This document shows, piece by piece, positions 17,756 to 39,314 of a DNA stretch of 64,000 nucleotides. Position numbers and translations under genes: made by a program. Under the pieces are notes generated by a model. It was not told the origin of the DNA. It was given only the letters and a program-made list of their open reading frames with translations, and made no database searches. Within the stretch, counting starts at the first letter, position 1. The number at the start of each line of letters is the position of its first letter. Source of the DNA: an uncultured bacterium (lineage in GTDB: Bacteria; Pseudomonadota; Gammaproteobacteria; Burkholderiales; Burkholderiaceae_C); the NCBI GenBank assembly GCA_963802435.1, contig CAWDIT010000013.1, forward strand, positions 111,113 through 175,112, written 5' to 3'.

Positions 17756-17834
17756 CCACGCCGAAGGGCCATTGCATGCGGCACATTCGCCGCGTGTGCC
17801 CGCTGAATCTCGAGGCCTACCAGAGACCGACACG

Positions 17835-18989: not shown

Positions 18990-19807
18990 GCGTGGCCGCA
19001 CTCGACCTGCCGGCGTTCGCGACCGTTGCGGCGCGCGCCGATGGCGCGGTGCTGCATCTCACGCTGAACCGGCCGGAAGCGCGCAACGCGATGTCGCTCG
19101 CGATGGTGGGTGAACTTCAGCGCGCGCTGGCCGCGGCCGAGGAGAGCGGCACGATCCGGGTCGTCGTGCTGCGCGGCGCGGGCGGACATTTCTGCGCCGG
19201 TGGCGATCTGAAAGACATGGCCGCCGCACGCATGAAGGCACAGGCACCCGGCGAAGACGCCATCGCCGAGGTGAACGCGCAGTTCGGCGCGCTGTGCGTC
19301 GCCTATTCGCGCACGCCGCTGGCGCTCGTCGCGGTGCTCGAAGGCACGGTGATGGGCGGGGGCTTCGGCCTCGCCTGCGTGGCCGACGTCGCGCTCGCCG
19401 GCGACAGCGTGGCGTTTCGCCTGCCCGAGACGACGCTCGGCGTCGTGCCGGCGCAGATCGCGCCCTACCTCGTCGAGCGCATCGGCACCTCGCAGGCCAG
19501 GCGCCTCGCGGTCAGCGGCGCCCGGCTCGATGCCGTGGCGGCACTCGCCATCGGCCTGGTGCACGAAGTGCATGCGGGCGCCGCGCTCGACGCGGCGCTG
19601 GCGCGGGTGATCGACAGCATCCTGCAATGCGCGCCCGACGCCGTTGCGCAGACCAAGCGTCTCGTCGCGCTGGCCCGCTTCAAATCACCGGCCGACCTCG
19701 TCGCCGAAGCCGCGGAGGTGTTCTCGCGCGCGGTGCAGGGGCCCGAGGGCATCGAGGGTACGACCGCCTTTCTGCAGAAGCGCAAGCCGAACTGGGCGCC
19801 GCAATGA
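18986..19807 (+). CDS. enoyl-CoA hydratase/isomerase family protein (AtuE/LiuC-like)
   Basis: The GTG start overlaps the upstream stop (GTGA). Crotonase motifs LNRPEARNAM, FCAGGDLK and EGTVMGGGFGLA are present. Confidence 0.85.
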   Translation: MSVAALDLPAFATVAARADGAVLHLTLNRPEARNAMSLAMVGELQRALAAAEESGTIRVVVLRGAGGHFCAGGDLKDMAAARMKAQAPGEDAIAEVNAQFGALCVAYSRTPLALVAVLEGTVMGGGFGLACVADVALAGDSVAFRLPETTLGVVPAQIAPYLVERIGTSQARRLAVSGARLDAVAALAIGLVHEVHAGAALDAALARVIDSILQCAPDAVAQTKRLVALARFKSPADLVAEAAEVFSRAVQGPEGIEGTTAFLQKRKPNWAPQ

Positions 19808-21780
19808 GCTTCAGCAAGATTCTGGTTGCGAACAGGGGTGAGATCGCGTGCAGGGTCATGCGCACCGCCCGCGCGCTCGGCTACCGCACGGTCGCTGTGT
19901 TCAGCGACGCAGACGCCGATGCACCGCACGTGCGGCAGGCGGACGAGGCGGTGCATGTCGGCGCCTCGCCCGCCGCCGACTCGTACCTTCGCATCGCCGC
20001 GTTGATCGAAGCCGCGCGGCGCACCGGCGCCGATGCGGTGCACCCCGGCTACGGGTTCCTCAGCGAGAGCGCCGCGTTCGCCCAGGCCTGCCTCGATGCG
20101 AACCTGGTGTTCATCGGCGCGCCGCCGGCGGCCATTCGCAAGATGGGCGACAAGGCGCTGGCCAAGCAACGCATGCTTGCCGCGGGCGTGCCGTGCGCGC
20201 CAGGCTATCTGGGGGCAGAGCAGGACGACGAACGCCTCGCGCACGAGGCCGCGGCGCTCGGCTACCCGTTGCTCGTCAAGGCGGTGGCCGGCGGCGGCGG
20301 GCGCGGCATGCGGCTGGTGCGCGAGGCCGCCGAGATCGTGCCGGCGATCGCCGGCGCCAGGCGCGAGGCGCTGAGCGCGTTCGGCGACGGAGCGCTGATG
20401 CTCGAGCGGCTGATCGAGGACGGCCGCCACATCGAGATCCAGGTCTTCGCCGACGCGCACGGCAACGCGATCCACCTCGGCGAGCGCGACTGCACGGCGC
20501 AGCGTCGACGGCAGAAGGTGATCGAGGAATCGCCGTCGCCGGCGGTCAGCCCGGCGATGCGCGAGGCGATGGGGCGCGATGCCGTTGCCGCCGCACTGGC
20601 CGTCGGCTACCGCGGCGCGGGCACGGTCGAGTTCATCGTCGACGCCGGGCTGAAGCACTACTTCCTCGAGATGAACACGCGGCTGCAGGTCGAGCATCCG
20701 GTCACCGAGACGGTCACCGGGCTCGATCTCGTCGAGTGGCAGTTGCGCGTCGCGGCGGGCGAACGGCTGCCGCTGCAGCAGCACGAGGTCCGCCTGCAGG
20801 GTCACGCGATCGAGGCGCGACTCTACGCGGAAGACCCGTATTCGCAGCCGACGCCGTTCGCGCCGCAGACGGGCCGCGTGCACTGGTGGCGGCCCGAGGC
20901 GGCAGCCTCACAGGCCGGCGTCCGCATCGACCACGGCATTGCCGAGGGAGGCGAGGTCTCGCCGTTCTACGACGCGATGGTCGCCAAGTTCATTGCCCAC
21001 GGCCGCGACCGCGACGACGCGATCCGTCGCCTGCGCGCGGCCTTGCAGGATGCCCCGCTGCTCGGCCTGCGCAACAACGGCCGCTTCCTGGCCGACCTGC
21101 TCGACCACCCGGACTTTCGCGGCGCCGCGCTGACGACGACGCGCATCGACCGCTGGTTCGAGCAAGGCGAGCCGATTGCACGGCGACCGCTGCCGACCGC
21201 CGAGGCCTGGTGCGTTGCCGCAGCCGCCTTGACGCACGGCGCGGGTTGGCGCGCCGACAGCGTGGCGGCGTACGACATCGAGCTGCGCTGCGACGACGGC
21301 GAGACCGAGCGCCTGCGCGTGTGCCCTGGCCACGGCGGCGCGGTACTGGTCGTGCACCGAGGAGAAGCGCACGAAGTCGGCCTGATCCGGTTCGAGCCGG
21401 GGGAGCTGAACTATCGCTTCGACGGCGTGCAGCGCCGAGCAGTGGCGCTGCACCACGGCAGCGACCTGCACCTTGCGCTGGCTGGCGCGAGCTTGGTGTT
21501 CAGCGAGCCCTCGGCACTGGCGAGTGCCGATGCCGGCGTCGACGAGCGGCGGGTGCGCGCTGCCGTGGCCGGCGTCGTGACCCAGGTGCTGGTGCAGCCG
21601 GGCGACACGGTGGCCGCCGGCCAGGCGCTCGTCTGCGTCGAGGCGATGAAGATGGAAATGTGGCTCGCCGCGCCGTCCGCTGGCGTCGTGCTGACGGTGC
21701 ACGCGCGCGTCGGCGAGCAGGTCGCGGCCGGCACCGTGCTGGCCGGACTGGAGCCGCAAGGCGCGAGGGAAACGTCATGA
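19804..21780 (+). CDS. acyl-CoA carboxylase biotin carboxylase/BCCP (alpha) subunit, AtuF/LiuD family
   Basis: ATGA overlap with the hydratase gene. MSFSKILVANRGEIACRV, an ATP-grasp core, and the C-terminal biotinylation motif EAMKME. Confidence 0.93.
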   Translation: MSFSKILVANRGEIACRVMRTARALGYRTVAVFSDADADAPHVRQADEAVHVGASPAADSYLRIAALIEAARRTGADAVHPGYGFLSESAAFAQACLDANLVFIGAPPAAIRKMGDKALAKQRMLAAGVPCAPGYLGAEQDDERLAHEAAALGYPLLVKAVAGGGGRGMRLVREAAEIVPAIAGARREALSAFGDGALMLERLIEDGRHIEIQVFADAHGNAIHLGERDCTAQRRRQKVIEESPSPAVSPAMREAMGRDAVAAALAVGYRGAGTVEFIVDAGLKHYFLEMNTRLQVEHPVTETVTGLDLVEWQLRVAAGERLPLQQHEVRLQGHAIEARLYAEDPYSQPTPFAPQTGRVHWWRPEAAASQAGVRIDHGIAEGGEVSPFYDAMVAKFIAHGRDRDDAIRRLRAALQDAPLLGLRNNGRFLADLLDHPDFRGAALTTTRIDRWFEQGEPIARRPLPTAEAWCVAAAALTHGAGWRADSVAAYDIELRCDDGETERLRVCPGHGGAVLVVHRGEAHEVGLIRFEPGELNYRFDGVQRRAVALHHGSDLHLALAGASLVFSEPSALASADAGVDERRVRAAVAGVVTQVLVQPGDTVAAGQALVCVEAMKMEMWLAAPSAGVVLTVHARVGEQVAAGTVLAGLEPQGARETS

Positions 21781-22649
21781 CGAAAGCGATCATCACCTGC
21801 GCGCTGACCGGCGTCCTGACCGACCCCAGGCAGCACCCGGTGCCGGTGACGCCGGCGCAAATGGCGGCCGAAGCGCGCGACGCGTTCGACGCCGGCGCGG
21901 CGATCATGCACGTGCACCTGCGCAGCCAGGAGGAGGGCTTCGGCCACCTGCCGAGCTGGGATCCGGACGTGGCCGAGCGCGTCGTGAATGCGATCCGCGA
22001 GGCCTGCCCCGACGTGATCATCAACCTCACGACCGGCGTGATCGGCAAGGACATCTCCGGGCCGCTCGCCTGCATCCGCCGCGTCAGGCCGGAGATCGCC
22101 GCCTGCAACGCCGGCAGCCTGAACTACCTGAAGATCAAGGACAACGGCCAATGGGCCTGGCCGCCGATGGTGTTCGACAACCCGGTGGCCAAGGTGCAGC
22201 AGTACCTCGACGTGATGGCCGAGTGCGGCGTGCACCCCGAGTTCGAGTGCTTCGACGTCGGCATCGTGCGTTCGGTCGCCATGTACCTGAAGGCTGGCAT
22301 GGTGACGCAGGCGATGGGGACGCCGGAGCTCAATTTCGTGATGGGCGTCGCCTCGGGCATGCCGTGCGACGCCGACCTGCTCGGGCTGCTGCCCCGCTGG
22401 CTCGCCCCCGGCGCCGTCTGGCAGACGACGCTGATCGGCCGCGCCGAGGTCTGGCCGGTGCACCAGAAGACGGCCGAGCTCGGCGGGATGCTTCGCACCG
22501 GCCTCGAGGACACCTTCTACCTGCCCGGCGGCGAACGCGCCACGGGCAACGGAGCGCTCATTGCCGCGCTGGCCGTCTGCGCCCGCCGTGCGGGGCGCGA
22601 AGTCGCCAGCCCGGCCGAAGCGCGCGTGCTGCTGGGCCTGCGCCACTGA
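21777..22649 (+). CDS. beta-keto acid cleavage enzyme family protein (BKACE, DUF849)
   Basis: ATGA overlap with the alpha subunit gene. MTKAIITCALTG, HVH (Zn ligands), NLTTG, RTGLEDT. Confidence 0.85.
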   Translation: MTKAIITCALTGVLTDPRQHPVPVTPAQMAAEARDAFDAGAAIMHVHLRSQEEGFGHLPSWDPDVAERVVNAIREACPDVIINLTTGVIGKDISGPLACIRRVRPEIAACNAGSLNYLKIKDNGQWAWPPMVFDNPVAKVQQYLDVMAECGVHPEFECFDVGIVRSVAMYLKAGMVTQAMGTPELNFVMGVASGMPCDADLLGLLPRWLAPGAVWQTTLIGRAEVWPVHQKTAELGGMLRTGLEDTFYLPGGERATGNGALIAALAVCARRAGREVASPAEARVLLGLRH

Positions 22650-24466: not shown

Positions 24467-24850
24467 CTAGACGAGCCCCATGCTGGCCGAACGCGTCAAC
24501 GCCACGGCGACGATGTAGCCGACGCTCGCCAGCGCCGCCGCGAACGCTATGAGTGTCTTGCGCCGCGAGGCATCCCGCCTCAAAGCGACGCTGCCCAGCA
24601 CGACGTAGACGCACAGCGCAAGCACCTTGGCCGTGAGCCAGGGCTGCGCCAGCGGGTACTGCGCGCTCATCACCGCCAGGGTGACGGCCGCCGCGAGCAG
24701 CAGCGTGTCGTTGAAGTGCGGTGCGACCCGCAGCCAGCGCCAGTGGCGCCAGTCGACACCCTTCAACTGCATTGCTCCGCGCAGGGCGAACAGGCTGATG
24801 CTGATGCCGGCAGAGCCGACGTGGACTGCACGAAGGGTCGAATACTCCAT
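24467..24850 (-). CDS. SirB-family small membrane protein
   Basis: ATG at 24850. 127 aa with 4 TM segments; PHFNDTLLL and WLTAKVLALCVYVVLG resemble the SirB family. Confidence 0.65.
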   Translation of the reverse strand: MEYSTLRAVHVGSAGISISLFALRGAMQLKGVDWRHWRWLRVAPHFNDTLLLAAAVTLAVMSAQYPLAQPWLTAKVLALCVYVVLGSVALRRDASRRKTLIAFAAALASVGYIVAVALTRSASMGLV

Positions 24851-24878: not shown

Positions 24879-25772
24879 CTAGCCCTTGCGACGGCGTCCG
24901 AAGCTCGGGGGCAGCCAGGGCAGCGCCAGCAGCAAAGCGGTGCCGGCGACGACGAGCGCCCACACCTGACCCAGCGGCCAGACATAGAACAGCGGCATCA
25001 GCGCGAGGTAGAACCAGTCGAATTGCAGCGTGCCGGCGGCCACCGCCATGTCGGCCGCGCCGCCCTGGCTCAGCGCCGGCGCCACAAGCGACAGCGCGAG
25101 CAGCGTCGCCAGCAGGCCCGCCATGATCGGCCGCGGCGGGTTCGTGCGCGCCTTGGGCACGCGCTGCACGTGCACCCACATCAGCAGCAGCACGACGAGC
25201 GGAATGCCGATGTGCATGAACGCCAACAGCGAGAAGAAGCGGTCGTTCACGCTGCTCGCGTAGATGAAGTTGCGCATCAGTGCGCCGCCGAAAATCGGCA
25301 ACCGGTCGAGCCATTCGAAGCTGGCGGTGATGACGAACTGCGCCATCCTGTCCCACGGCAGCATGTAGCCGTTGATGCCCGACACGTAGACCAGCCAGAT
25401 CAGCGCCACGCCGGTCAGCCAGGAGAACGAGCGGAAGCCCCGCAGCCGGTCGAATGCGAAGTGGCGCAGCATGTGCAGCAGCATCGTGAACGCCATCGCA
25501 TCCGACGCATAGCGGTGCAGGCTGCGCAGGATGCCGCCGGCCCACCACTGACCGTGCGTCAGCGCCTCGACCGATGCATACGCGTCGCTGACGCCGGTCT
25601 CGAAGAACGCGTACAGGTACAGACCGCTGGCGGCGACGACCCAGAACAGGAAGAAGCTGATCGCGCCGAGCTGGTACAGCGGGTTCAGGCGGTCGCCGAA
25701 GGCCGCGTTGAACGGCGCCTCGACACGGATGAACAGCCATTGCAGCCAGCCCTGCAGGCGCTTGATGATCAT
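24879..25772 (-). CDS. diheme cytochrome b (cytochrome b N-terminal-domain-like)
   Basis: ATG at 25772 overlaps the upstream stop (ATGA). Two His pairs spaced 14 residues apart (SLHRY..LLHML and FMHIG..WVHVQ), as in the bc1/b6 heme ligands. It is a paralogue of the N-terminal half of 27707..29266. Confidence 0.8.
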   Translation of the reverse strand: MIIKRLQGWLQWLFIRVEAPFNAAFGDRLNPLYQLGAISFFLFWVVAASGLYLYAFFETGVSDAYASVEALTHGQWWAGGILRSLHRYASDAMAFTMLLHMLRHFAFDRLRGFRSFSWLTGVALIWLVYVSGINGYMLPWDRMAQFVITASFEWLDRLPIFGGALMRNFIYASSVNDRFFSLLAFMHIGIPLVVLLLMWVHVQRVPKARTNPPRPIMAGLLATLLALSLVAPALSQGGAADMAVAAGTLQFDWFYLALMPLFYVWPLGQVWALVVAGTALLLALPWLPPSFGRRRKG

Positions 25773-27196
25773 GCCGGGTCCGGGCGCGCAGCCGGCTGCC
25801 GCATCGCCTTCACGACGACGACGACGAACAGCAGTCCGCCGACGATCGCGATCAGGCCACCGAGTCCCATCAACCCCATGCCGGCCACCTCGCCCGGGCT
25901 GCGCAGCACCTGCTCGGCGCCGGCCACCTTGCGCTGCACGCCGTAGCCGCCCGACCACACCAGGCCGACGATGTGCAGCAACTGCCCGCTGCCATAGAGC
26001 CAGGGCTGCAGCGTCGCCGAGCGCGCGTTCGGCGCGGCGTAGCCGAGCTGCGGCAGCAGGTGGTAGACGAGGCCCATCAGTGCCAGCGTCACGCCGACAA
26101 TGCAGCCGTGGTAGTGCGCCGGTATGCGTACGTTGCTCCCGCTGATGAAGACGCCGATGAGTCCGCCGGCCGCAAAGAGCAGCACCGACGACACCAGCGC
26201 CGCGCGCAGGGGCCGCGCCGTGACGTCCGGCGACGGAGCGCCGGCGAGCGCGAGCACGACCGCCAGGCCGGTCGGCAGGATCGCGACGCCGCCGCCGAGG
26301 CGCATCGCCCAGGTGAGCAGGTTGCGGTGCTCCACCGACGCGACGTCGTAGGCCAGGTAGGCCCAGGGCGTGACGAACACGCTCGCCAGCGCGAGCGCGA
26401 ACATCAGCAGCGCGATGCGCGGCGACAGGCGCACCCGGGCCCCGCTGGCGCCGGCCAGCCACAGCCAGGCGACGAGCATCAGCAGCGTCCAGGTGAACTG
26501 CAGCGCATGGCCGCCGCCCCAGAACGCGATCTCGTAGTAGGCCTTGCCGGCGAGCGAACGCGGGACGACGGCGAGCGACCACGCGAACGCGAGCAGCGCG
26601 ACGGCCGTGGCGACGGCGCTGGCGTTCAGCCCGAAGCGCAGCGCGCCAGCGCCGTCGAACGAGACGCCGAGCCGGGGCGCGAGCCACAGGCCGCGCAGCA
26701 CGAGCAGCGCCGTGCCGATGCCGAACACGACCAGCCCGGCGAGGAACAGCGGCCCGTCGAGCACCGGGATGTAGTTGGCCATCACCGCCTCGCCGCGGTC
26801 GAGGAAGGGCGCCAGCGACATCATCAGCGCGCCTGCGCCGGCGAGGGCGAGCGCCACCCAGCCCGAGCGAATGCCGCGTGGCGCGCTGTTCAGGCTCCAG
26901 AGCAAGCCCGCGACGGCGACGAACCACACCAGCACCGAAAGGTCCACATGCACGACGAGCGCGACGCGAAAGAAGTCGGCGACCGGCAGCCACTGGTTGA
27001 CTCCTGGCGTGCGCGAGAGCACCAGTAGCACCGAGAACACGCCCGAGCCGACGAGCGACAGCACGGCGAGCCACAGCCAGCCGCGGGCGAGGGCACGGCG
27101 CGCGCCCGCGGGCACGGCGAGCGTGTAGTCGGTTGCGGCGGCGGACGCCAGCGCCGGCGCCTGTGAGGCGAGAGGAAGCACAGTGGTGGTGTTCAT
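25769..27196 (-). CDS. divergent heme-copper-oxidase subunit I-like membrane protein
   Basis: 475 aa. The HCO signature helices are recognisable: ALVVHVD, FWGGGHALQF, IPAHYHGCIVG..LVYHLLP. The helix VII HH pair reads VEHRN. ATGA overlaps at both ends. Confidence 0.75.
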   Translation of the reverse strand: MNTTTVLPLASQAPALASAAATDYTLAVPAGARRALARGWLWLAVLSLVGSGVFSVLLVLSRTPGVNQWLPVADFFRVALVVHVDLSVLVWFVAVAGLLWSLNSAPRGIRSGWVALALAGAGALMMSLAPFLDRGEAVMANYIPVLDGPLFLAGLVVFGIGTALLVLRGLWLAPRLGVSFDGAGALRFGLNASAVATAVALLAFAWSLAVVPRSLAGKAYYEIAFWGGGHALQFTWTLLMLVAWLWLAGASGARVRLSPRIALLMFALALASVFVTPWAYLAYDVASVEHRNLLTWAMRLGGGVAILPTGLAVVLALAGAPSPDVTARPLRAALVSSVLLFAAGGLIGVFISGSNVRIPAHYHGCIVGVTLALMGLVYHLLPQLGYAAPNARSATLQPWLYGSGQLLHIVGLVWSGGYGVQRKVAGAEQVLRSPGEVAGMGLMGLGGLIAIVGGLLFVVVVVKAMRQPAARPDPA

Positions 27197-27714
27197 TGGA
27201 GGGCGATGCCGCCTTTCTCGGCGTCGAAGTCGATGACCAGGATCTGCGCCGGTGCGAGACTCACGGTCTGCTCGCGCTGATAGTCGAAGCCACTACCGGC
27301 GGCGCTGTCCTTCAAGCGCACGGCGACGCGGTGTTCGCCGGCCGCCACGTTCAAGCGCTGGTAGACCGTCGAAGCGCCGTCCTTCGACAGCCCCGACGGC
27401 TCGGCGACGTGGCGAACCGCCGGCGCGCCGTCGATGTCGACCTCGACGCGAACCGGAGCGCGCTCGCGCTCGCACTTCATCGTCGCTCGCATGTTGGGCG
27501 GCAGCTTCGCGAGTTCTTCGGCGCCGAGCTGCCGGCATTCGGCGACACGCTTGCCGGCGTGCGTGAAGCTCAGCTTGATCAGCGCCTGGTCAGGTGCCAG
27601 GTGGTGGTACTCGGGCCAGTGGGAGAACACGCCGATGACGAGCGCGAACACGCCATAGAGCAGCAACTGGCCGGCCCAGGCGAGCGGTGTGGTTCGTGCC
27701 TTGGGTCTATCCAT
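27193..27714 (-). CDS. hypothetical membrane-anchored protein (173 aa)
   Basis: One N-terminal TM segment (LAWAGQLLLYGVFALVIGVF) and a soluble domain predicted to be beta-rich, with two Cys. It is translationally coupled to both neighbours. No family recognised. Confidence 0.6.
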   Translation of the reverse strand: MDRPKARTTPLAWAGQLLLYGVFALVIGVFSHWPEYHHLAPDQALIKLSFTHAGKRVAECRQLGAEELAKLPPNMRATMKCERERAPVRVEVDIDGAPAVRHVAEPSGLSKDGASTVYQRLNVAAGEHRVAVRLKDSAAGSGFDYQREQTVSLAPAQILVIDFDAEKGGIALQ

Positions 27715-29266
27715 GCTGCAGGCTCGTCTGCACGGGTCGCGGCAGCGGCGCGACGCGGCGACGCAGCGCGTCCAGCGCCGCGGCGACGTCGGTCTCGTCG
27801 CCGGCGTCTGCCCACGTCACTTCGATGCGCTCGCGCGGCACCGAGGCACGCAGTTGCGGCTCGCGCTCGCCGAGCAGGCGCTGCTGCGTCCACCGCGCGC
27901 CGAGGCGAAACTCGCAGCCGCCCTCACGGCAGCCTGTCACCAGCACGCCCGCGGCGCCGCCGCGCAGCGCGTACTCGACGAACGAGGGCGGCAGCATGCC
28001 AGTGCAGATCAGGCTCAGGCTCGTCACGTCGGCGGCTTCCAGCGCAGCGACGCGCGCCCCGCGGTCGCAGCCGATGACGACGATCCGACTGTCGCCCTGC
28101 AGTGCGGCGAGCTGGCGTTCCATCTTCTGGCGCAGGCTGTTCAGCGGCATCTGCGGCATGTCGATGCCGGTGGCGAGTTCGGCCGCGCCGCGAAACGGCG
28201 TCGCCGAGGGACACGAGCCGACGCAGATGCCGCAACTCGAACAGAGGTCGGCGTCGACCTGCGCGAGCTGCCTGGCGATTCTTCCGTTCGGGTGCGGCAG
28301 CATCGTGATCGCCGCATACGGGCAGTCGTCGAAGCAACGCCGGCAGCCGTTGCAGTTGTCAGGGTCGACCCGGGCCACTGCGGGCGCCGCAGGTCGTGGC
28401 AGCCAGGGCAACGCGAACAGCAGCAGCAGCGTCGCGCCGACCAGCAGCCACAGCGCGCCGGCCGAGCTGGCGTACATCAGCGGGTGGACGAACAGCAGCC
28501 ACCAGTCGAGCGCGACGGTCCGAGGCGCGCTGGCGAGATCCGCCGCGCCCTGGTCTGCCACCGGCAGCGCCAGCGCCAGTGCGAGGAGCGCCAGCGTCAC
28601 GCCGGCGGCGAGCGTGCGCGGCGGGAACACCTCTGCGCGGCTGAGCCGCTGGATGTGGAACCACAGGCCGAACACCAGCAGCAGCGGCACGCCGAGGTGG
28701 ATGAACACGAACAGCGAGAACAGCCGGTCACCGACACTGGCAGGGCCGAGGAAGTTGCGCGTCAGCGGCGACGCGAAGAACGGCAGCGCGTCCAGCCACT
28801 CGGCGGTGGCGATGGCGGAGAACTGGCCGAGACGGTCCCAGTTCAGCCAGAAGCCGCCGATCGCGCTGACGAAGGCGAACAGCAGCAGCGGCACACCGGT
28901 GAGCCACGAGAAGCGGCGAAAGCCGTGGTAGCGGCCGAACAGCCATTCGCGCAGCAGGTGGGCCAGCATCAGGACGACGAAGGCATCGGCCGCGTAGCGG
29001 TGCAGGCTGCGCAGCCAGCCGCCCAGGTACCAGGGTTGCCGCGACAGCTCGGCGATCGAGCGGTAGGCGCCCGCGACCGAGGTGTCGAGCACCGCATAGA
29101 GCACGATGCCGCTCGCCGCCAACAGCCAGAAGCAGAGGAAGCCCAGCGCGCCCAGGTGGCGCAGCGGGTTCAGCGCGCTTCCGGACACCGCGTCTAGGCC
29201 GCGCTCGCCGCGCTGCCACAGGGCCAGCGCGACTTCGCGTGCCGCCGGTGTCGACTCCTTGGCCAT
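27707..29266 (-). CDS. fusion protein: cytochrome b domain, 2x[4Fe-4S] ferredoxin domain and MvhD/FlpD-like domain
   Basis: ATG at 29266. Cytochrome b His pairs (SLHRY..MLAHLL, FIHLG..WFHIQ). CNGCRRCFDDCP and CSSCGICVGSCP. C-terminal LICTGMLPPSFVEYALRGGAAGVLVTGCREGGCEF resembles methyl-viologen-reducing hydrogenase delta subunit. Confidence 0.75.
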   Translation of the reverse strand: MAKESTPAAREVALALWQRGERGLDAVSGSALNPLRHLGALGFLCFWLLAASGIVLYAVLDTSVAGAYRSIAELSRQPWYLGGWLRSLHRYAADAFVVLMLAHLLREWLFGRYHGFRRFSWLTGVPLLLFAFVSAIGGFWLNWDRLGQFSAIATAEWLDALPFFASPLTRNFLGPASVGDRLFSLFVFIHLGVPLLLVFGLWFHIQRLSRAEVFPPRTLAAGVTLALLALALALPVADQGAADLASAPRTVALDWWLLFVHPLMYASSAGALWLLVGATLLLLFALPWLPRPAAPAVARVDPDNCNGCRRCFDDCPYAAITMLPHPNGRIARQLAQVDADLCSSCGICVGSCPSATPFRGAAELATGIDMPQMPLNSLRQKMERQLAALQGDSRIVVIGCDRGARVAALEAADVTSLSLICTGMLPPSFVEYALRGGAAGVLVTGCREGGCEFRLGARWTQQRLLGEREPQLRASVPRERIEVTWADAGDETDVAAALDALRRRVAPLPRPVQTSLQHG

Positions 29267-29274
29267 CGTGATCG

Positions 29275-30162
29275 TCAATGCGCCGTGGGCACGGCCGGCG
29301 GTCGCGGCATCGACGCGGCCCGCTGCGCCCGGCGCGCGCGGCGCCGGTCTCGCCACTCGAGGGCGAAGAACCACAGCATCGCGAGCGCGAAGGTGATGCC
29401 GCCGGCGATCTCGATCGCCAGCGCGTAGCTGACGCGGTAGGTGCCGGTGGCAGGGTCGTAGACCGAGCACAGCAGGCGCACGCGTTCGACGAGTTCGGCC
29501 AGGCCCAGGCTCGCCGGCAGCGGCTGGTTGCGCAGCAGCAGGCGAAGCGGCTCGCCGAGCCGGTCGGCGCTGAAGTCGTCGCCGTAGACCTGGGCCGCGA
29601 GGCGACCCTCGGCGTCGACGATGCTGACCTGGAGCAGGTGGTCGAAACCGGCCTGGGTCGGCCGGTATTCGAAGCCGAAGTCGCGTGTCAGCGCAGCGAT
29701 GCTTGCCGCGCGCGGGCTGAGGAAGTCCCAGTTCGGCGCTGCGATCCGCTGCTGCAGCGCGAACGCCTTCATCGACTGCGGCGAATCGGCGGGCTGGTTG
29801 AAGCCGATGCTGACGACGTTGAACTGGCCCGCATCGAAGCTGCCGCGCATCGCCTGCAGCGCCTCGGCCAGCGCGCGCGTGCTCGTCGGGCAGACCTGGA
29901 AGCAGCCGGTGTAGATGAAGTTCACGAGCAAGGGCTTGCCGCGGTAGTCGGCCAGGCGCACCGGGCGCCCCTCGCGGTCGAGCAAGGTGAAATCGCCGAT
30001 CGTCCTGCCGATCGCCGCCTGGCTCGTGCGCAGCGCGGCGGAGGGGTCCAGCGCCGGCTGGAGGGCGGCTGTGTCCTCGGCGTGGGCCGGAGCGAGTATG
30101 GCCAAGGCAAGTGCGGCCAGCAGGCCGCGCAGCGTGGTGGCGAGCACGCCGGCAGCAGGCAT
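29275..30162 (-). CDS. SCO1/SenC copper chaperone with a C-terminal transmembrane extension
   Basis: ATG at 30162. Signal/anchor sequence, thioredoxin fold with CFQVCP (CxxxCP) and a distal His (GFDHLLQVSIVD), plus an extra C-terminal TM segment (IAGGITFALAMLWFFAL). Confidence 0.8.
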   Translation of the reverse strand: MPAAGVLATTLRGLLAALALAILAPAHAEDTAALQPALDPSAALRTSQAAIGRTIGDFTLLDREGRPVRLADYRGKPLLVNFIYTGCFQVCPTSTRALAEALQAMRGSFDAGQFNVVSIGFNQPADSPQSMKAFALQQRIAAPNWDFLSPRAASIAALTRDFGFEYRPTQAGFDHLLQVSIVDAEGRLAAQVYGDDFSADRLGEPLRLLLRNQPLPASLGLAELVERVRLLCSVYDPATGTYRVSYALAIEIAGGITFALAMLWFFALEWRDRRRARRAQRAASMPRPPAVPTAH

Positions 30163-30169
30163 CGCAGCC

Positions 30170-31066
30170 CTAGCGCAGCAGCGCGTCGACGCTCGCCGCG
30201 GCAAGAACCAGGCTGAGTTGGAGCAGCGACGCGAAGAACGAACCCATCGCCGTCTGGCGGCTGGGGTGGCTTGCGAGGGCATGGGCCTTGCGCAGGAAGA
30301 AGAGGCCACCGGCCAGCGCACCGGCCAGGTAGATCGGCCCGGCGCCGAAGAACATCGGCAGCAGCGATGCAGCGACCAGCACGGCCGTGCTCCAGAACAC
30401 GATGCGCGCGGCGCGCTCGGTTCCCACCACCACCGGCAACATGGGCACGCCGGCGGCGACGTAGTCGTCGCGGTTGGCGATCGCCAGGCTCCAGAAATGC
30501 GGCGGCGTCCACAGGAACAGCACCAGCGCCAGCAGCGCCGGCAGGCTGCCGAGCGCGGGATCCACCGCTGCGGCGCCGGCCAGCACGGCAAAGCTCCCAG
30601 CCAGGCCGCCGATGACGATGTTGAGCCAGGTCCGCCGCTTCAGCCACACCGTGTAGACGACGGCATAGAAGAACGCGCCGAGGAAGACGTAGAGCGCCAC
30701 CATCGCGTTCAGCGCCCACCAGGCCGACGCGACCGAGGTGGCCAGCAGCAGCCCGATCAGCGCCAACCATGCCGGCGTGTGCGGCAGGGCGCCGGTGACG
30801 AAGGCGCGCGTGCGCGTGCGCGCCATCAGGCGGTCGCTGTCGGCCTCGACGTACTGGTTGAACGCGCCTGCGCTCGCCGAGGAGACGAAGACCGACAGCG
30901 CGAGCACCAGCACCTGCGCCAGCCCGGGCCCCGGTCCGGGCGTGAACGCGAAGCCGACCAGCGCAGTGAGCATGATCATCAGGCCGATGCGCAGCTTGAA
31001 CAGCCCGAGCACGTCGCGGACCAGGCGCGCCGGAGTGCGAGTTGCGTGCGCGATGGAGGCGCTCAT
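30170..31066 (-). CDS. ctaB: protoheme IX farnesyltransferase (heme O synthase)
   Basis: ATG at 31066. UbiA-family motifs (NQYVEADSDRLMARTRTR, YTVWLKRRT, LWTPPHFWSLA). Confidence 0.88.
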   Translation of the reverse strand: MSASIAHATRTPARLVRDVLGLFKLRIGLMIMLTALVGFAFTPGPGPGLAQVLVLALSVFVSSASAGAFNQYVEADSDRLMARTRTRAFVTGALPHTPAWLALIGLLLATSVASAWWALNAMVALYVFLGAFFYAVVYTVWLKRRTWLNIVIGGLAGSFAVLAGAAAVDPALGSLPALLALVLFLWTPPHFWSLAIANRDDYVAAGVPMLPVVVGTERAARIVFWSTAVLVAASLLPMFFGAGPIYLAGALAGGLFFLRKAHALASHPSRQTAMGSFFASLLQLSLVLAAASVDALLR

Positions 31067-31241: not shown

Positions 31242-32942
31242 TCATGACAGGCCCCAGACCTGAGACAGGTACTTCCAGTTGATGAAGTAGTAGAGCACGA
31301 AGGCCGCCAGGAACACCATCGCCAGCGCGAAGGTGCCGGGGGCCGCGAAGCCGGCCGAGCCGTATCCTTGCACGGCAGCGCCGACGGGAGTCGGCGGGAT
31401 CGGCGTAAAGCGCGGACTGACGGCGCCGCTGTCGAGCCGCTTGCCCCACAGCAGCGAACCGACCGTGACGTAGATGTAGATCGCGCCGCCGGCGATCGCC
31501 GCGATGCCGGCAAGCCCGACCAGGCCCATCATCAGGTAGGCCGCGCCCGGCCACTCGTAGGCCATGGCCGCGCCGCTGAAGGCCATGTCCCAGTGGCGGC
31601 GCGAGACGCCCAGCGTGCCCGCGCCCATCATCACCAGGCAGAAGAAATACATCGACAGGCCGAACAGGTAGGGCTGCAGCTTCGCCAGGCCGGGGGCGAT
31701 CATCTCGCGCCGGAACAGCACCGGGATCAGGAAGTAGGTCAGCGCCATGAACGACAGCGTCGTGCCGACGACCACCGTGGCGTGGAAGTGACCGGGCACG
31801 TAGATCGTGTTGTGGATGATCATGTTGAGTTGCTCGGTGCCCATCATCACGCCCGAAATGCCGCCGAGGAAGCCGAAGCCGATCAGCGAGATGAACACGC
31901 CGGAGAACACCGGGTTGCCCCAGGGCGCCTTGCGCAGCCACTCGAACAGGCCCTTGTTGAAACCCTTCTTGCGCTGCGCGACCTCGATCGCCCCGGGAAT
32001 GGTCAGGCCGTGGATCATCGAGGCGAGCACCGCGAAGTACATGAAGTAGCTGGTGTTGACGACCTTCCACGCGGTGCTCACGCCGGGATCGGCCAGCAGG
32101 TGGTGCGCGCTGGCGAGCTGCAGGAACAGGATGTAGAGCAGGAAGGCCCCGCGGCTGACGCGCTCCGACATCGGCTTGGCGCCGAAGGCGATCGCCGCGA
32201 CCGCATACCAGATCGAGATGTGCGCCGCGACGTTGATCTGCTGCGACGAGTGGCCGAAGGCCCACCAGATCGTGCGGTAGACGAGCGCATCGACTTCCTT
32301 GACGACGCCGACCGACATCAGGAAGGTCGGGATCAGGATGATTGCGCCGGAGGCGATCGTGAACACGGCGATGATCGCGGCGGTGATCGCACCGAAGGTC
32401 ACCAGCGGCACCGACCCCTGGTAGGTCTTGTCGCGCCTGGCAATGACCAGCGTGCCGAAGAAGACGAAGCAGGCGACGAGCGCGCCGACGGCGAACAGGA
32501 TCAGCCCGAGGTAGAAGTGCGGCGCGGCCATCATCGGCACGTAGCTCGTCATCATCACGCTCGAGCTGCCCTGGAACACGGCGACGTTGTTGGTGACGGC
32601 ACCGATCAGCATCAACGCGAATGCGAGCCAGGCGATGTTGGGTGTGGCGATCCGGCAGCGCAGCAGCGTCGACGAGCAGAAGTAGAGCACCGCGACCTCG
32701 AAGAAGATGATCCAGAAGATCAGCATGTCGATGCCGTGCGCGGTGAGCACCTGGTAGAAGGTGTCGGCGGCGAGCCAGTGCACGGCCGGCCAGCGCGTCA
32801 GCACGACGCCGACGGCGAGGATGCCGCCGACGAGCAGGAACACCACCGCCACCACGGCGTTGGCGATCATCAGTTTCTCGGCCTGGCCTTCGAACTGAAG
32901 GCCCGAGCGAGGGCAAGTGCGGTACGTCACGGCGCTCGACAT
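31242..32942 (-). CDS. heme-copper oxidase subunit I, B-family-like, lacking the cross-link tyrosine
   Basis: 566 aa, collinear from memory with Thermus ba3 subunit I: LTAHG, WWAFGHSSQQ (ba3 GHPIVY), SAHHLLADPG, VPGHFHATV. SD GGGAGG precedes the ATG. Confidence 0.85.
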   Translation of the reverse strand: MSSAVTYRTCPRSGLQFEGQAEKLMIANAVVAVVFLLVGGILAVGVVLTRWPAVHWLAADTFYQVLTAHGIDMLIFWIIFFEVAVLYFCSSTLLRCRIATPNIAWLAFALMLIGAVTNNVAVFQGSSSVMMTSYVPMMAAPHFYLGLILFAVGALVACFVFFGTLVIARRDKTYQGSVPLVTFGAITAAIIAVFTIASGAIILIPTFLMSVGVVKEVDALVYRTIWWAFGHSSQQINVAAHISIWYAVAAIAFGAKPMSERVSRGAFLLYILFLQLASAHHLLADPGVSTAWKVVNTSYFMYFAVLASMIHGLTIPGAIEVAQRKKGFNKGLFEWLRKAPWGNPVFSGVFISLIGFGFLGGISGVMMGTEQLNMIIHNTIYVPGHFHATVVVGTTLSFMALTYFLIPVLFRREMIAPGLAKLQPYLFGLSMYFFCLVMMGAGTLGVSRRHWDMAFSGAAMAYEWPGAAYLMMGLVGLAGIAAIAGGAIYIYVTVGSLLWGKRLDSGAVSPRFTPIPPTPVGAAVQGYGSAGFAAPGTFALAMVFLAAFVLYYFINWKYLSQVWGLS

Positions 32943-32952
32943 TTCGGCCTCC

Positions 32953-33492
32953 CTATTTCACGTACATGCGGCCGACCATCGTGTGATGGTTGATGCCGCA
33001 GTACTCGTTGCACACCACCGAGAATTGCCCCGTCTGGTTCGGAGTGACGTTCACCACGTGCTCGAAGCCGGGAACGACCTGGATGTTGATGTTGGTCGGC
33101 TGCAGCGAGAAGCCGTGGTTGTAGTCCATCGATGTCAGGTGCAGCCGGTAGGTCTTGTCCTTCTCGAGCTCGATGATCGGCCACCAGCTCCACAGGCGCG
33201 CGATCAGGTACACGTCGCTGCCCGCCGGTGGGTGCACCACCGGGATCTTCTGGTCGGTCTCGGTGCGCACGGTGTACTTGTCGACCATCGCCTGCGCCTT
33301 GGCGGCGAACAACTCGGGCGTCGTGCGGTAGGTCTCGGTCGACAGGTTCTGCTTGCCCCAGATGTGCCAGCCGACCATCATGAAGAACATCACCATGCAC
33401 CAGACGAAGGCGATGGCGATCCACGTGCCTTCGACACGGTCCAGCGGGTGCTTCCACCACAGTCGTTCGGCGGGGGGCAGGATGGCGCTCAT
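32953..33492 (-). CDS. heme-copper oxidase subunit II (cupredoxin, CuA site present)
   Basis: One TM helix and a cupredoxin domain. The CuA ligand pattern is H (MDYNHGF) plus CNEYCGINHHTM (C-x3-C-x3-H-x2-M). Confidence 0.82.
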   Translation of the reverse strand: MSAILPPAERLWWKHPLDRVEGTWIAIAFVWCMVMFFMMVGWHIWGKQNLSTETYRTTPELFAAKAQAMVDKYTVRTETDQKIPVVHPPAGSDVYLIARLWSWWPIIELEKDKTYRLHLTSMDYNHGFSLQPTNINIQVVPGFEHVVNVTPNQTGQFSVVCNEYCGINHHTMVGRMYVK

Positions 33493-33535: not shown

Positions 33536-33691
33536 TCACCTGGCCAGCGGCACGGTCAGAATGTCGATCACGCCCCAGAGGGTGTAGACCAACATCGGCA
33601 CCATCACGCCGAGGAACAGCAGCAGGAACGGGTTGTCCAGCAGTTGCTGCATCCAGGGGATGGATTCGTCGTCGTTTTCGGTCGCGTGCAT
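33536..33691 (-). CDS. small single-TM protein (51 aa) leading the oxidase operon
   Basis: AAGGAG lies 6 nt upstream of the ATG at 33691. There is a hydrophobic helix (FLLLFLGVMVPMLVYTLWGVI). It sits 43 nt upstream of subunit II. Confidence 0.5.
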   Translation of the reverse strand: MHATENDDESIPWMQQLLDNPFLLLFLGVMVPMLVYTLWGVIDILTVPLAR

Positions 33692-33881: not shown

Positions 33882-34871
33882 ATGGCCAACATGACAACGA
33901 CGCCTCCCGCGCCGGAAAGCGATCCCGCGCGACGCCTGGCATTCCTGCGACGCCTGGCTCTGCTGTGCGCGATCCTGGTGCTCGCGATCACCAGCCTGAG
34001 CGCGTTCATCCGCCTGTCGAAGGCCGGTCTCTCGTGTACCGATGGACCGCACTGTTACGGCCAGAACCTGCGCCAGCTCCAGCAGGGTCTTGCGGCGACG
34101 GCGGGCGAGGACGCGGGCACGGCCGCAGCGCGGCTGGCGCATCGCGTGGTGGCGAGCGCCGCGCTGCTGCTGGTGATCACGATGGTCGTCGTCTGCCTGA
34201 CGGCTCGCCCGCCGATGTGGCCCGAAAGCCGCGCCGCGCTCGCGCTTCTCGCGCTGGCCTTGTTTCTCGCCGTGCTGGGCCGATGGTCGGGCAACGCGCG
34301 CGTGCCGGCCGTGGCGATCGGCAACCTGCTCGGTGGCTTTGCGATGCTGGCGTTGTGCTGGCGGTTGGCGCGCGGGGGCTCCGTGCCCGGCACGCCATCG
34401 CTGCGCGCATGGGCCGGGCTCGGCGTGGTCCTGCTCGTGGTGCAGGTGACACTCGGAGGCTTGTTGAGCGCGTCCTACGCTGCGATGAGCTGCGGCGGCC
34501 TCGCCGAATGCCTCGCCGCGTCGGCGAACGTTCCGTGGAACGCCCTCGATCCCTGGCGCGAACCCGTGCTGGCGCTCACCCCGCCGCTCAACCCTTCGGG
34601 TGCGCTGGCGCAGACAGTGCATCGGCTGTCGGGGCTTGCCGTCGCGCTGGTCGTGGGGCCGCTGGGCATCGCCGCGCTGCGCAACGGTCGACGCGGTCAC
34701 GGCGCGCTGTTGCTGGTGTTGCTGGCTGCGGAGCTAGTGCTGGGCTTGCGGATGACCGGCGGCGTGTCGCTTGCACTGGCGCTGGCGCTGGCGCATAACG
34801 TGGTCGCCGCGTTGCTGCTGGCCACGGTGTTCGATCTGACGCGAGGGTCTGGCGCGGCGCGGTTGCCCTGA
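33882..34871 (+). CDS. ctaA: heme A synthase (COX15/CtaA family)
   Basis: Polytopic protein with Cys pairs (SCTDGPHC, SCGGLAEC) and conserved His residues (AHRVV, VHRLSG, AHNVV). The start is ATG 33882 or 33891. Confidence 0.75.
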   Translation: MANMTTTPPAPESDPARRLAFLRRLALLCAILVLAITSLSAFIRLSKAGLSCTDGPHCYGQNLRQLQQGLAATAGEDAGTAAARLAHRVVASAALLLVITMVVVCLTARPPMWPESRAALALLALALFLAVLGRWSGNARVPAVAIGNLLGGFAMLALCWRLARGGSVPGTPSLRAWAGLGVVLLVVQVTLGGLLSASYAAMSCGGLAECLAASANVPWNALDPWREPVLALTPPLNPSGALAQTVHRLSGLAVALVVGPLGIAALRNGRRGHGALLLVLLAAELVLGLRMTGGVSLALALALAHNVVAALLLATVFDLTRGSGAARLP

Positions 34872-34928: not shown

Positions 34929-35633
34929 ATGGAGCCGCGCCCGTTCGACGTGCCGAAATACCTCTCGGTACTGCCGCTGTTCAACGACCTCACGCCGGTC
35001 GAACTGAAGCAACTGGCCGAAGGGTGCATGCTGCGCCGCCTGGTGCGCGGCGACATGGTCTTCCGCATGGGCGAACCCTGCAACGAGTTCCACGTGGTCG
35101 TGACGGGGCAGGTCAAGTTGTTCGTGCTGTCGCCGGCGGGGCAGGAGAAGGTGCTGGAACTGGTCGGCCCTGGCCAGAGCTTCGGCGAGGCGATCATGTT
35201 CACCGACCGCCCCTACATGCTGGGCGCGCAGTCGCTTTCGGACATGCTGCTGCTCACGGTCTCGAAGCAGGCGGTGCTGGCCGAGATCGAGCGCGACCAC
35301 CGCTTCGCACTGCGCATGCTCGCCGGGCTGTCGCGCCGCATGCACGGGCTGGTGCACGACGTCGAGGCCTATTCGCTGCACTCAGGATTGCAGCGCGTGA
35401 TCGGCTTCCTGCTGCGCGACCAGGCGCTCGATGACTGCGCGCCGACCGAGGTGCGCACGGTGTCGCTGCCGGTCAGCAAGGCGACGATCGCGTCGCGTCT
35501 GTCGCTCTCGCCCGAGTACTTCTCTCGCGTGCTGCACGAACTCGAGGCCAGCGGCCTGATCGAAATCGACCGCCGCGACATCCGGATCCTCGACGCCCAG
35601 CGGCTTTCCCAGTTCGGCCTCACGGCTGCCTGA
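34929..35633 (+). CDS. Crp/Fnr-family transcriptional regulator without an Fnr-type Cys cluster (Dnr/NnrR-like)
   Basis: cNMP-binding-like beta-barrel (GQSFGE). C-terminal HTH with the E--SR recognition motif (SPEYFSRVL). No N-terminal CxxC..C motif. Confidence 0.85.
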   Translation: MEPRPFDVPKYLSVLPLFNDLTPVELKQLAEGCMLRRLVRGDMVFRMGEPCNEFHVVVTGQVKLFVLSPAGQEKVLELVGPGQSFGEAIMFTDRPYMLGAQSLSDMLLLTVSKQAVLAEIERDHRFALRMLAGLSRRMHGLVHDVEAYSLHSGLQRVIGFLLRDQALDDCAPTEVRTVSLPVSKATIASRLSLSPEYFSRVLHELEASGLIEIDRRDIRILDAQRLSQFGLTAA

Positions 35634-38487: not shown

Positions 38488-39297
38488 TCAGCCTGCGGCG
38501 GGCGCTGATTCGTCCACCGCCACCGCCGCGCGGTAGGCGTGCCAGGTGGCGTGGCCGAGCACCGGCCCGACGACGAGCAGGCCGAGGAATCCGGGCAGCA
38601 TCGCGAGCACGACGAGCAGCGTGATCAGCGTGCCCCACAGCAGCATCACGCCGGGCTGCGCGAGGCACAGGCGGATGCTCGTCAGGCCGGAGCTGATGGC
38701 ATCGGTCTGGCGGTCGAGGATCATCGGGATCGAGACCACGCTGACGGCGAAGATCAGCGCTGCGAAGGCGCTGCCGACGCCCATGTAGGCGACGATGAAT
38801 TCGGTGTTCTCGGGGTCGACGAGCTTGAGCAGCGAACCCTTGAAGTCCGGCATGCCGTCGAAGCTGAGCGCGAAGACGACCAGTGACGCGCGCGCCCAGA
38901 CCATCTCGAGCACGAGCAGCACGGTGCCGAAGACCGCCATCGTCCCCATCTTCGTATCCCAGGCGGTGAGCGACTCGCCGAGGTCGGGATGCTCGCCGCG
39001 TTCGAGCTTGCGGCTCACGTCGTAGAGGCCGAGGCAGAGGAAGGGTCCGACGAGCAGGAACCCCGCGCTCAGCGCGAGCGTCCACGCCGGCGAGTACTCG
39101 AAGACCTTCAGCAGCAGCCAGCCCATCACGGCGAAACAGCCGCCGTAGAACACGCCGATGACGGGCGCGCGGCGCAAGTCGCGCCAGCCTGCGGCGAGCC
39201 AGCGCAAAGGATCGGTCAGCCGAAGCTCGTTCAGCCGGATGTCGAAGGCCGAGTCGGAGGCGGGCGCGGAAGAGCGGGTCTCGGTGGGCTTGCTCAT
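38488..39297 (-). CDS. DUF2189-family integral membrane protein
   Basis: ATG at 39297. PLRWLAAGWRDLRRAP..GVFYGGCF and several TM segments. Family recognised from memory only. Confidence 0.6.
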   Translation of the reverse strand: MSKPTETRSSAPASDSAFDIRLNELRLTDPLRWLAAGWRDLRRAPVIGVFYGGCFAVMGWLLLKVFEYSPAWTLALSAGFLLVGPFLCLGLYDVSRKLERGEHPDLGESLTAWDTKMGTMAVFGTVLLVLEMVWARASLVVFALSFDGMPDFKGSLLKLVDPENTEFIVAYMGVGSAFAALIFAVSVVSIPMILDRQTDAISSGLTSIRLCLAQPGVMLLWGTLITLLVVLAMLPGFLGLLVVGPVLGHATWHAYRAAVAVDESAPAAG

Positions 39298-39314
39298 CGC
39301 GCGATTCTGCCGAA

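Follow-up and report, generated by a model that had tools for sequence, protein, structure and literature searches.

An accessory module of two cytochromes b, a small membrane protein and an oxidase-like protein in a conserved eNOR operon, with a possible role in cofactor maturation

What do two cytochromes b, a small membrane-anchored protein and an oxidase-like protein do when they are encoded together, and which enzyme do they serve? The question is raised by four overlapping genes on the minus strand of a 64,000-nucleotide stretch of DNA (hereafter the window) from an uncultured bacterium of the Burkholderiaceae_C (assembly GCA_963802435.1, contig CAWDIT010000013.1, positions 111,113 to 175,112). 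An earlier note on this DNA read the four genes as an independent new complex built around an active site like that of the heme-copper oxidases (HCOs). The independence did not hold: the four genes belong to a nine-gene operon for a nitric oxide (NO) reductase of the eNOR type, of which they form the accessory, promoter-distal half, and may serve the maturation of that enzyme.

The promoter-distal half of an eNOR operon

The nine genes, in the order in which they are read, are the following; genes 1 to 4 are those of the module.

33536..33691, minus strand: first gene of the operon, open reading frame (ORF) of 51 residues with a single helix; start and stop read in the DNA
32953..33492, minus strand: eNOR subunit II, a cupredoxin with the CuA motif CNEYCGINHHTM (Pfam COX2, 27.5 bits)
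31242..32942, minus strand: eNOR subunit I, an HCO related to the B family, 566 residues (Pfam COX1, 211.7 bits)
30170..31066, minus strand: heme O synthase of the CtaB/UbiA family (Pfam UbiA, 166 bits)
29275..30162, minus strand: Sco1/SenC copper chaperone (Pfam SCO1-SenC, 55.5 bits)
27707..29266, minus strand: gene 1 (cytb1-Fer4-FlpD), diheme cytochrome b of about six transmembrane (TM) helices fused to two [4Fe-4S] ferredoxin motifs and an MvhD/FlpD domain, 519 residues
27193..27714, minus strand: gene 2 (p173), 173 residues, without a Pfam or NCBIfam family
25769..27196, minus strand: gene 3, HCO-like 'eNOR scaffold protein', 475 residues (Pfam COX1, 50 bits)
24879..25772, minus strand: gene 4 (cytb2), second diheme cytochrome b, 297 residues, shortened here (Pfam Cytochrome_B, 75 bits)

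The operon order is thus small helix, eNOR II, eNOR I, ctaB, sco, cytb1-Fer4-FlpD, p173, HCO-like and cytb2. Read in the DNA, the four distal ORFs have the coordinates and the 8-, 4- and 4-nucleotide (nt) overlaps that the earlier note gave them: genes 1 and 2 share ATGGATAG (8 nt), while genes 2 and 3, and again genes 3 and 4, share ATGA (4 nt each). Upstream, on the same strand, 175 nt separate subunit I from ctaB, 7 nt separate ctaB from sco, and gene 1 begins 8 nt after the stop codon of sco. The heme O synthase is 298 residues long by the gene call on a near-identical metagenome contig (L001).

To see how widespread this arrangement is, we scanned one genome per species, which returned at least 597 matching stretches, and mapped the proteins of the window onto the best 80 loci. 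These come from Burkholderiales as well as Lysobacterales, Dokdonella, Steroidobacteraceae and Nevskiaceae, and include several cultured strains (among them Curvibacter, Ramlibacter, Piscinibacter, Simplicispira, Castellaniella, Noviherbaspirillum and Pelomicrobium). The earlier note had asked whether the gene order is conserved, and it is: the nine-gene order recurs in almost every one of the 80 loci with enough flanking sequence. Three variants were seen. The cytb1-Fer4-FlpD gene is lost in seven loci (L017, L030, L032, L045, L069, L076 and L079), some clusters are rearranged to sco-cytb2-p173-cytb1FerFlpD-HCO-like(-ctaA), and some have one cytochrome b only. In many loci ctaA lies directly downstream, and heme A synthase homologues stand beside the cluster in most of them. 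The module was never found apart from a complete eNOR in these 80 loci, wherever the flank was long enough to show one. We assign the four genes to the operon because of the tight gaps to sco, the order recurring in nearly all of the 80 genomes and the eNOR-type glutamine (Gln) in the co-located subunit I.

That glutamine identifies the enzyme. Subunit I has all six metal and heme histidines (the helix II His and the GH, AHH and GHFH motifs in its translation) and carries Gln in place of the cross-linked tyrosine (Tyr), in the motif WWAFGHSSQQ (GHSSQQ here against GHPVVY in 7DEG). Its nearest relatives in the PDB are B-family oxidases (7DEG, 8e-47; Thermus ba3, about 4e-44). The motif GH[SP]SQQ is present in 64 of 68 co-located subunit I ORFs, the remaining four being unmatched by the search pattern. 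Gln at the Tyr position in helix VI is the diagnostic residue of eNOR; the site holds Tyr in oxygen reductases, Glu in cNOR and qNOR, Asn in sNOR and CuANOR, and Asp in gNOR (PMC8756737, Table A4). Subunit II has NCBIfam matches to CoxB/SoxA/NosZ C-terminal families and is kept in synteny. By the Gln signature, the His set and the relatedness to the B family, subunits I and II are therefore assigned, from sequence, to a CuA-containing HCO of the eNOR type. We had at first suspected an sNOR (norSY-senC) from the Sco gene; this was ruled out, as sNOR has Asn where Gln is found here. NO, one of the substrates that the earlier note proposed, is a sensible candidate for the locus. The note is literally right that the module contains no cupredoxin, but this misleads, since the CuA subunit II (33492-32953) and a full subunit I lie upstream on the same strand.

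In Rhodothermus marinus, eNOR has been shown to reduce NO and carries heme As at each of its two sites; many eNOR operons encode CtaA, and a sizeable part of the NO reduced and the N2O produced in the environment is attributed to eNOR-type enzymes (Murali et al. 2024, PMC11214002). The enzyme of the window shares with that family its relation to the B family, the CuA subunit II, the Gln and the accompanying heme O and heme A synthase genes, whereas the four-gene module is not the enzyme itself; the portion of the text of Murali et al. 2024 available to us contains no description of its four genes. The 51-residue ORF has homologues in 60 ORFs of related loci at the matching position, and also in a distant locus (L083). 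Its position upstream of subunit II resembles that of subunit IIa in ba3 oxidases.

A closely similar gene set has been listed before, in the eNOR operon of Ferrigenium straubiae, which comprises eNOR II, eNOR I, heme O synthase, Sco1 and a cytochrome b/[Fe-S]/FAD/NADH protein, with, as further genes, a hypothetical protein, an 'eNOR scaffold protein', PerM and a cytochrome b/ferredoxin/F420-hydrogenase-delta protein (bioRxiv 10.64898/2026.01.22.701106, a 2026 preprint). The scaffold gene (2878407321) is left without an assigned function there and annotated with the KO number K02274 (coxI). The same preprint describes the first four genes together with the scaffold as 'a very common observation', regards the cytochrome b genes as 'rather unusual', and proposes the cytochrome b fusions as a quinol:NAD+ oxidoreductase or a supercomplex (bioRxiv 10.64898/2026.01.22.701106). 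It also reports protein values of 28.0 for the scaffold, 26.2 and 23.9 for the cytochromes b, 31.6 for eNOR I/II and 24.7 for Sco1 (units unstated, n=1), and transcripts of these genes about 5-40x below those of eNOR I/II under denitrifying conditions (bioRxiv 10.64898/2026.01.22.701106). The values of the module are thus nearer to Sco1 than to eNOR I/II.

Likened by gene content and annotation, the operon of the window shares the Ferrigenium set, including the COX1-like scaffold beside sco1 and the heme O synthase. The two differ in that the other cytochrome b of Ferrigenium has FAD and NADH domains and PerM is inserted, whereas cytb2 of the window has no such tail and the genes run cytb1-p173-HCO-like-cytb2. 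In the preprint the cytochrome b genes count as an unusual feature that marks Ferrigenium; in our comparison, nearly all of the 80 genomes, Burkholderiales and gammaproteobacterial, have them. The earlier note's view that the module matches no characterised enzyme therefore needs qualifying: the four proteins are biochemically uncharacterised, but the same genes had already been listed. Beyond the preprint, we show how broadly the synteny extends and add an analysis of the ligands in the scaffold family, the family's context in system II cytochrome c biogenesis, the fusions and the truncation of cytb2.

Gene 3 and its family

On sequence and model, we regard gene 3 as a paralogue of the catalytic subunit with the 12-helix fold of subunit I. 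Its COX1 match exceeds the Pfam cut-off of 34.8 bits. A single-sequence search with gene 3 reached no HCO in the PDB; these were reached only with a family profile, which matched one, the B-family subunit I of Aquifex (7DEG, E 2.5e-13). Compared by profile with the eNOR subunit I of the operon (hhalign), gene 3 gave a probability of 99.7% over 441 columns and the same ligand pattern. The AlphaFold2 (AF2) model has twelve helices (predicted local distance difference test, pLDDT, 91.5; predicted template-modelling score, pTM, 0.92), and a Foldseek search with it returned subunit I of the A, B and C families with probability 1.0 and TM-scores of 0.65-0.75.

The ligands are only partly kept. Gene 3 retains H83 (helix II), H230 (helix VI), H361 and H363 (helix X) and R422/K423, and in an alignment of 47 members (31-82% identity to the window protein) the invariant or near-invariant positions are H83; W226, G229, H230 and Q233 (in FWGGGHxLQF); H361-Y-H363; and R422-K423. 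The His-His pair of helix VII is absent across the alignment, its position aligning to non-His residues, and it likewise has no counterpart in the profile match to 7DEG. The signature position, which holds Tyr, Glu, Gln, Asn or Asp in the described classes, is Phe in gene 3; in the motif GHxLQF, Phe stands at +4 from the helix VI His in 72 of 79 motif-bearing ORFs. The earlier note's proposal of an HCO-like active site does not survive this family-wide loss of the His pair and the Phe at the signature position. Gene 3 can plausibly bind two hemes, and with two of the three second-metal ligands lost family-wide it is predicted to be unable to build a CuB/FeB centre, which would place the NO catalytic site in the upstream subunit I and not in gene 3.

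Gene 3 has in common with the catalytic HCO subunit I (of A, B and C oxygen reductases and of cNOR and qNOR) the 12-helix fold, the heme His of helices II and X, the helix VI His and the Arg/Lys pair. It differs in having no helix VII His-His, no cross-linked Tyr, no Glu/Gln/Asn/Asp marker of NO reductases and no subunit II of its own. By these residues, it appears to fit no described class of oxygen or NO reductase. The family is large, with 5632 homologues at 90% clustering and 1535 representative clusters at 50% identity (639 with E<=1e-30). Against five relatives, the ratio of non-synonymous to synonymous substitution rates (dN/dS) was 0.14-0.32 for gene 3, 0.12-0.50 for genes 1, 2 and 4, and 0.03-0.25 for eNOR I. 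Because of these values, all four genes are taken to be under purifying selection, constrained somewhat less tightly than the catalytic subunits.

Several members are fused to other proteins or stand in other gene clusters. In an AT-rich lineage, an HCO-like::CtaB fusion (L083:2629-4875) directly follows eNOR I, and no cytochrome b gene is seen in the cluster within the limits of the short contig. This locus also carries an ORF of the 50-residue helix class at 248-397, and the last helix of its eNOR subunit I is a separate 48-residue gene (2440-2616). A cytb::HCO-like fusion (L084:2-2287) adjoins nirS, the gene for cd1 nitrite reductase. Elsewhere p173 joins the first cytochrome b, in cytb::Fer4::FlpD::p173 fusions (L134:3212-5383 and L140:11127-13193).

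Members of one large branch, which share 40-48% identity with the window protein, have an extra helix and a TPR tail. We looked up five TPR representatives, four of which had a readable upstream flank; all four immediately follow CcsA. Some lie between ResB/CcsA and a ResA-like thioredoxin or a CcmH-like TPR protein, and one follows a multiheme cytochrome c. A metagenome scan seeded with TPR-type sequences gave 74 loci with the HCO domain, of which 49 have CcsA immediately upstream (38 with the TPR tail and 11 without), a figure that the seeding biases towards this context; 10 have eNOR-type neighbours, 12 start at a contig edge and three are other cases. The CcsA-linked clusters (L085, L086, L088 and the L089-L168 set) read ResB-CcsA-HCO-like, often with a ResA-like thioredoxin, and contain no HCO. 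We found no report of the HCO-like gene in ResB/CcsA clusters in our literature searches. The theme shared by the contexts of the family is the making, moving or attaching of heme on the outer face of the membrane.

Cytochromes b, p173 and the surrounding genes

The domain calls of the earlier note stood up in Pfam: Cytochrome_B in genes 1 and 4, Fer4 and FlpD in gene 1 and COX1 in gene 3. In gene 1, Cytochrome_B scores 66 bits and is joined by Fer4 families and by FlpD (PF02662, 48.9 bits against a cut-off of 22.3). A motif scan bore out two further points, the two CxxCxxCxxxCP motifs of gene 1 (CNGCRRCFDDCP and CSSCGICVGSCP) and the absence of CxxCH from all four proteins; by the same scan the operon encodes no cytochrome c donor. 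Genes 1 and 4 have two HX13H pairs each and match PF00033 above the cut-off, while their NCBIfam cytochrome b scores are all far under the family cut-offs. Their cytochrome b domains are 48% identical over 264 residues (E 1e-74) and are, as the note had it, paralogues by sequence. Each is predicted to keep two heme b sites, and the fused C-terminal domains must, on this prediction, be cytoplasmic. The fusion of gene 1 is constant: cytochrome b forms part of all 69 FerFlpD ORFs in related loci, and the partner of the FlpD domain there is always cytochrome b. No Hdr or hydrogenase gene was found among the neighbours searched against Pfam, which cover part of the window. On contig L001 (2199-3738), gene 1 is called as two genes (276 and 223 residues) with a frame change near 2907. 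This split is probably an assembly error; the window and 69 other loci carry a single fused ORF.

Gene 4 is shorter than its relatives. In 71 of the 80 loci, cytb2 continues into a C-terminal Fer2 + FAD_binding_6 + NAD_binding_1 tail; gene 4 ends at the linker where this tail begins, as does its counterpart on L001, and no domain of the tail was found elsewhere in the 64 kb window. In the window and L001 only, a SirB gene fills the place of the absent tail, the few SirB-like matches of other loci lying kilobases from the cluster. The SirB gene is thus not a conserved member of the operon, and this pattern suggests a lineage-specific deletion or replacement of the tail.

The region corresponding to PEWY is altered to (F/L)DW(F/W), read as FDWF or LDWW in genes 1 and 4. 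Searches of the operon proteins against Pfam and NCBIfam returned no Rieske domain, no search having been aimed at Rieske proteins as such. With the cytochrome b of bc1/b6f and with ExtP/ExtQ and SoxC, the two proteins share the two HX13H pairs, the Pfam Cytochrome_B match and a layout like b6 plus subunit IV. They differ from bc1/b6f in that the operon has no cytochrome c1 or f, PEWY is altered and cytoplasmic Fe-S or flavin domains are fused on at the C-terminus. Reductases of the NOX/FRE/STEAP type pass electrons from cytoplasmic NAD(P)H through a flavin and two b hemes to the outer face of the membrane. The logic of the relatives' cytb2 would be similar (NAD(P)H to flavin to two stacked b hemes to an outer-face acceptor), although its heme domain is unrelated, being of the cytochrome b6 type and not a ferric-reductase domain, and a [2Fe-2S] cluster is interposed.

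The remaining protein, p173, has an N-terminal TM helix and a beta-sandwich domain. Its conserved residues are His52, Cys60, Met75 and Cys81, the two cysteines being invariant. Neither Pfam nor NCBIfam has a family for it, even though it has 2387 homologues. A Foldseek search with its AF2 model (pLDDT 82) gave no specific structural match, only generic Ig/CBM-like beta-sandwiches (best E 0.02). We also considered p173 as a cupredoxin or a PCuAC-like copper site, which the conserved residues do not support.

Three further genes adjoin the operon.

24467..24850, minus strand: SirB-family membrane protein, 28 nt downstream of gene 4 (Pfam SirB, 124.5 bits)
33882..34871, plus strand: heme A synthase (CtaA/COX15-like), divergent from the operon, recognised from its translation alone
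34929..35633, plus strand: Crp/Fnr-family regulator, after the heme A synthase gene (Pfam cNMP_binding and HTH_Crp_2)

The Crp/Fnr-family protein, which may regulate the locus, has no FNR-type N-terminal Cys cluster and looks Dnr/NnrR-like. The region upstream of the operon showed no FNR-type box. Promoter and terminator scans gave nothing usable at the operon, the sole terminator-like match lying inside gene 3 and below chance expectation. The pattern TTGAT-N4-ATCAA (up to two mismatches) occurs 20 times in the window against 5.45 expected, a count reached in none of 100 shuffles, and none of these occurrences lies in the eNOR promoter region; the excess may be compositional. About 5 kb from the cluster is a gene for a DUF2189 integral membrane protein (38488-39516, minus strand). 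Further away, at 16142-22649 on the plus strand, are genes for a carboxyltransferase, an acyl-CoA dehydrogenase, a biotin carboxylase-like protein and a beta-keto acid cleavage enzyme, which are ordinary metabolism and unrelated to the module.

Maturation or respiration

Tentatively, we favour a reading of the module as a cofactor-maturation line for eNOR with its own reductant supply, as opposed to a second respiratory enzyme. We prefer it because one member is fused to CtaB, others stand with CcsA, ResB and ResA, the genes are grouped with ctaB, sco and ctaA, expression in Ferrigenium appears sub-stoichiometric and the active site of gene 3 is lost. The four proteins would form one membrane assembly, in which the cytochromes b would carry electrons from a cytoplasmic reductant across the membrane to outward-facing hemes of the scaffold. 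Physical coupling to cytochrome b is proposed because of the start/stop overlaps and the cytb::HCO-like and cytb::Fer4::FlpD::p173 fusions, and cytoplasmic entry because of the Fer2, FAD and NAD domains fused to cytb2 in the great majority of relatives. Electrons would enter at the Fe-S/FlpD domain and, in relatives, also from NAD(P)H; in this organism, where the NAD(P)H-binding tail is lost, the Fe-S/FlpD entry alone would remain. The scaffold would hold or reduce heme while eNOR subunit I is loaded with heme As in both sites. Alternatively, the same electrons may feed heme A synthase, or reduce the Cu or Fe destined for CuA or FeB.

Surf1/CbaX, CcmF, CcsBA and CcmI/NrfG are heme-handling or oxidase-assembly factors, CcmF is thought to reduce heme ahead of its attachment, and in eukaryotes the heme A synthase Cox15 needs ferredoxin together with ferredoxin reductase. 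The HCO-like protein would resemble the first group in function, with a His-held heme on the outer face passed to an apoprotein and, in the TPR branch, a tail for the client. Genes for such factors sit with ctaB/ctaA/sco or with ResB/CcsA/ResA, as the HCO-like family does. The protein has no sequence or fold relation to any of them; the resemblance would be one of function only.

Several points weigh against a role in maturation. The case for it is one of guilt by association and ligand loss. Two large redox enzymes seem a heavy investment for assembly alone, and a structural complex would account just as well for translational coupling and conserved, stoichiometric-looking gene sets. Distal His230 is invariant, and E222 and Q233 are also highly conserved, which suggests that the pocket does more than store heme. 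The branches linked to CcsA and to eNOR could have diverged in function, and the count of loci with CcsA is biased upwards by the TPR-type seeding of the scan. The proteome values, finally, are unit-less and come from a single sample.

The main rival, possible though we rather doubt it, is a respiratory supercomplex for electron input or energy coupling, in which eNOR would have the cytochrome b fusions, p173 and the HCO-like protein as stoichiometric partners that link it to NAD(P)H or ferredoxin, to the quinol pool or to both. Electrons could then run in either of two directions. NAD(P)H or quinol would reduce NO without bc1 or cytochrome c, the hemes of the HCO-like protein acting as a relay; or, as proposed for Ferrigenium, quinol oxidation at a Qo-like site would be coupled to NO reduction and the second electron sent back to NAD+ or ferredoxin. 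The domain sets (Cytochrome_B with Fer2, FAD and NAD, and Cytochrome_B with two Fer4 and FlpD) are those of enzymes, a PEWY-corresponding segment is retained, the genes are tightly coupled in translation, the cytb::HCO-like fusion adjoins nirS and the operon has no cytochrome c donor of its own; the preprint both proposes such a complex and detects the proteins under denitrifying conditions (bioRxiv 10.64898/2026.01.22.701106). However, eNOR operons commonly include the HCO-like gene even without a neighbouring cytochrome b gene (L083, and 'very common' according to the preprint), and the HCO-like family also occurs in cytochrome c biogenesis clusters without any HCO. Several operons lack cytb1-Fer4-FlpD and are complete otherwise, the window does without the NAD(P)H tail, and apparent abundances are well under those of eNOR I/II. 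The eNOR also retains a complete CuA site, which implies a periplasmic donor. On bioenergetic grounds, moreover, passing electrons from quinol to NAD+ through a P-to-N heme pair would be uphill in both redox and membrane potential unless the system bifurcates. Such a Rieske-free bifurcation, driven by NO reduction, in which quinol oxidised at a Qo-like pocket of the cytochromes b would send one electron through the HCO-like hemes to the very high-potential NO/N2O couple and the other through bL/bH to the Fe-S/FlpD or [2Fe-2S]-FAD arm to reduce ferredoxin or NAD(P)+, strikes us as very improbable.

Closer to the earlier note is a stand-alone oxidoreductase with catalysis in the high-spin heme pocket of the HCO-like protein, acting on NO, O2 or another oxidant with electrons from the Fe-S centres and quinol. 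We consider this unlikely. The high-spin heme ligand H361 and the distal H230 are invariant, E222, Q233 and Y362 are conserved nearby, purifying selection acts on the gene, nirS beside L084 supplies a denitrification context, and HCO-derived enzymes with altered sites do exist (NOD and gNOR; PMC11214002). Yet two of the three second-metal ligands are gone in every member, the module always accompanied a complete eNOR in the loci with sufficient flank, and outside eNOR operons the family keeps company with heme-attachment machinery and not with redox partners. That the HCO-like gene is merely a functionless, decaying duplicate of eNOR subunit I, which its weak COX1 match and lost catalytic ligands might suggest, is barely credible: a decaying paralogue is ruled out by the dN/dS and conservation data, and the many clusters of the family, the invariant heme ligands, the confident fold and the detection of the protein in Ferrigenium all speak for a maintained gene.

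Whichever reading proves correct, a fixed set of four accessory genes accompanies eNOR across a large block of Burkholderiales and some Gammaproteobacteria, and annotations of gene 3 as 'cbb3-type cytochrome c oxidase subunit I' mislead genome-based metabolic inference. The locus bears on the electron donor of eNOR, on its maturation (heme As, CuA and FeB) and on the source of reductant for heme A synthesis in bacteria. Should the HCO-like protein be a heme-handling scaffold, it would represent a new class of assembly factor derived from a catalytic subunit and common to an oxidase-type enzyme and cytochrome c maturation, and the module could identify the missing reductant supply of bacterial heme A synthesis. 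If the module instead supplies eNOR with electrons or draws low-potential ones from it, this step of denitrification would have to be assigned different energetics.

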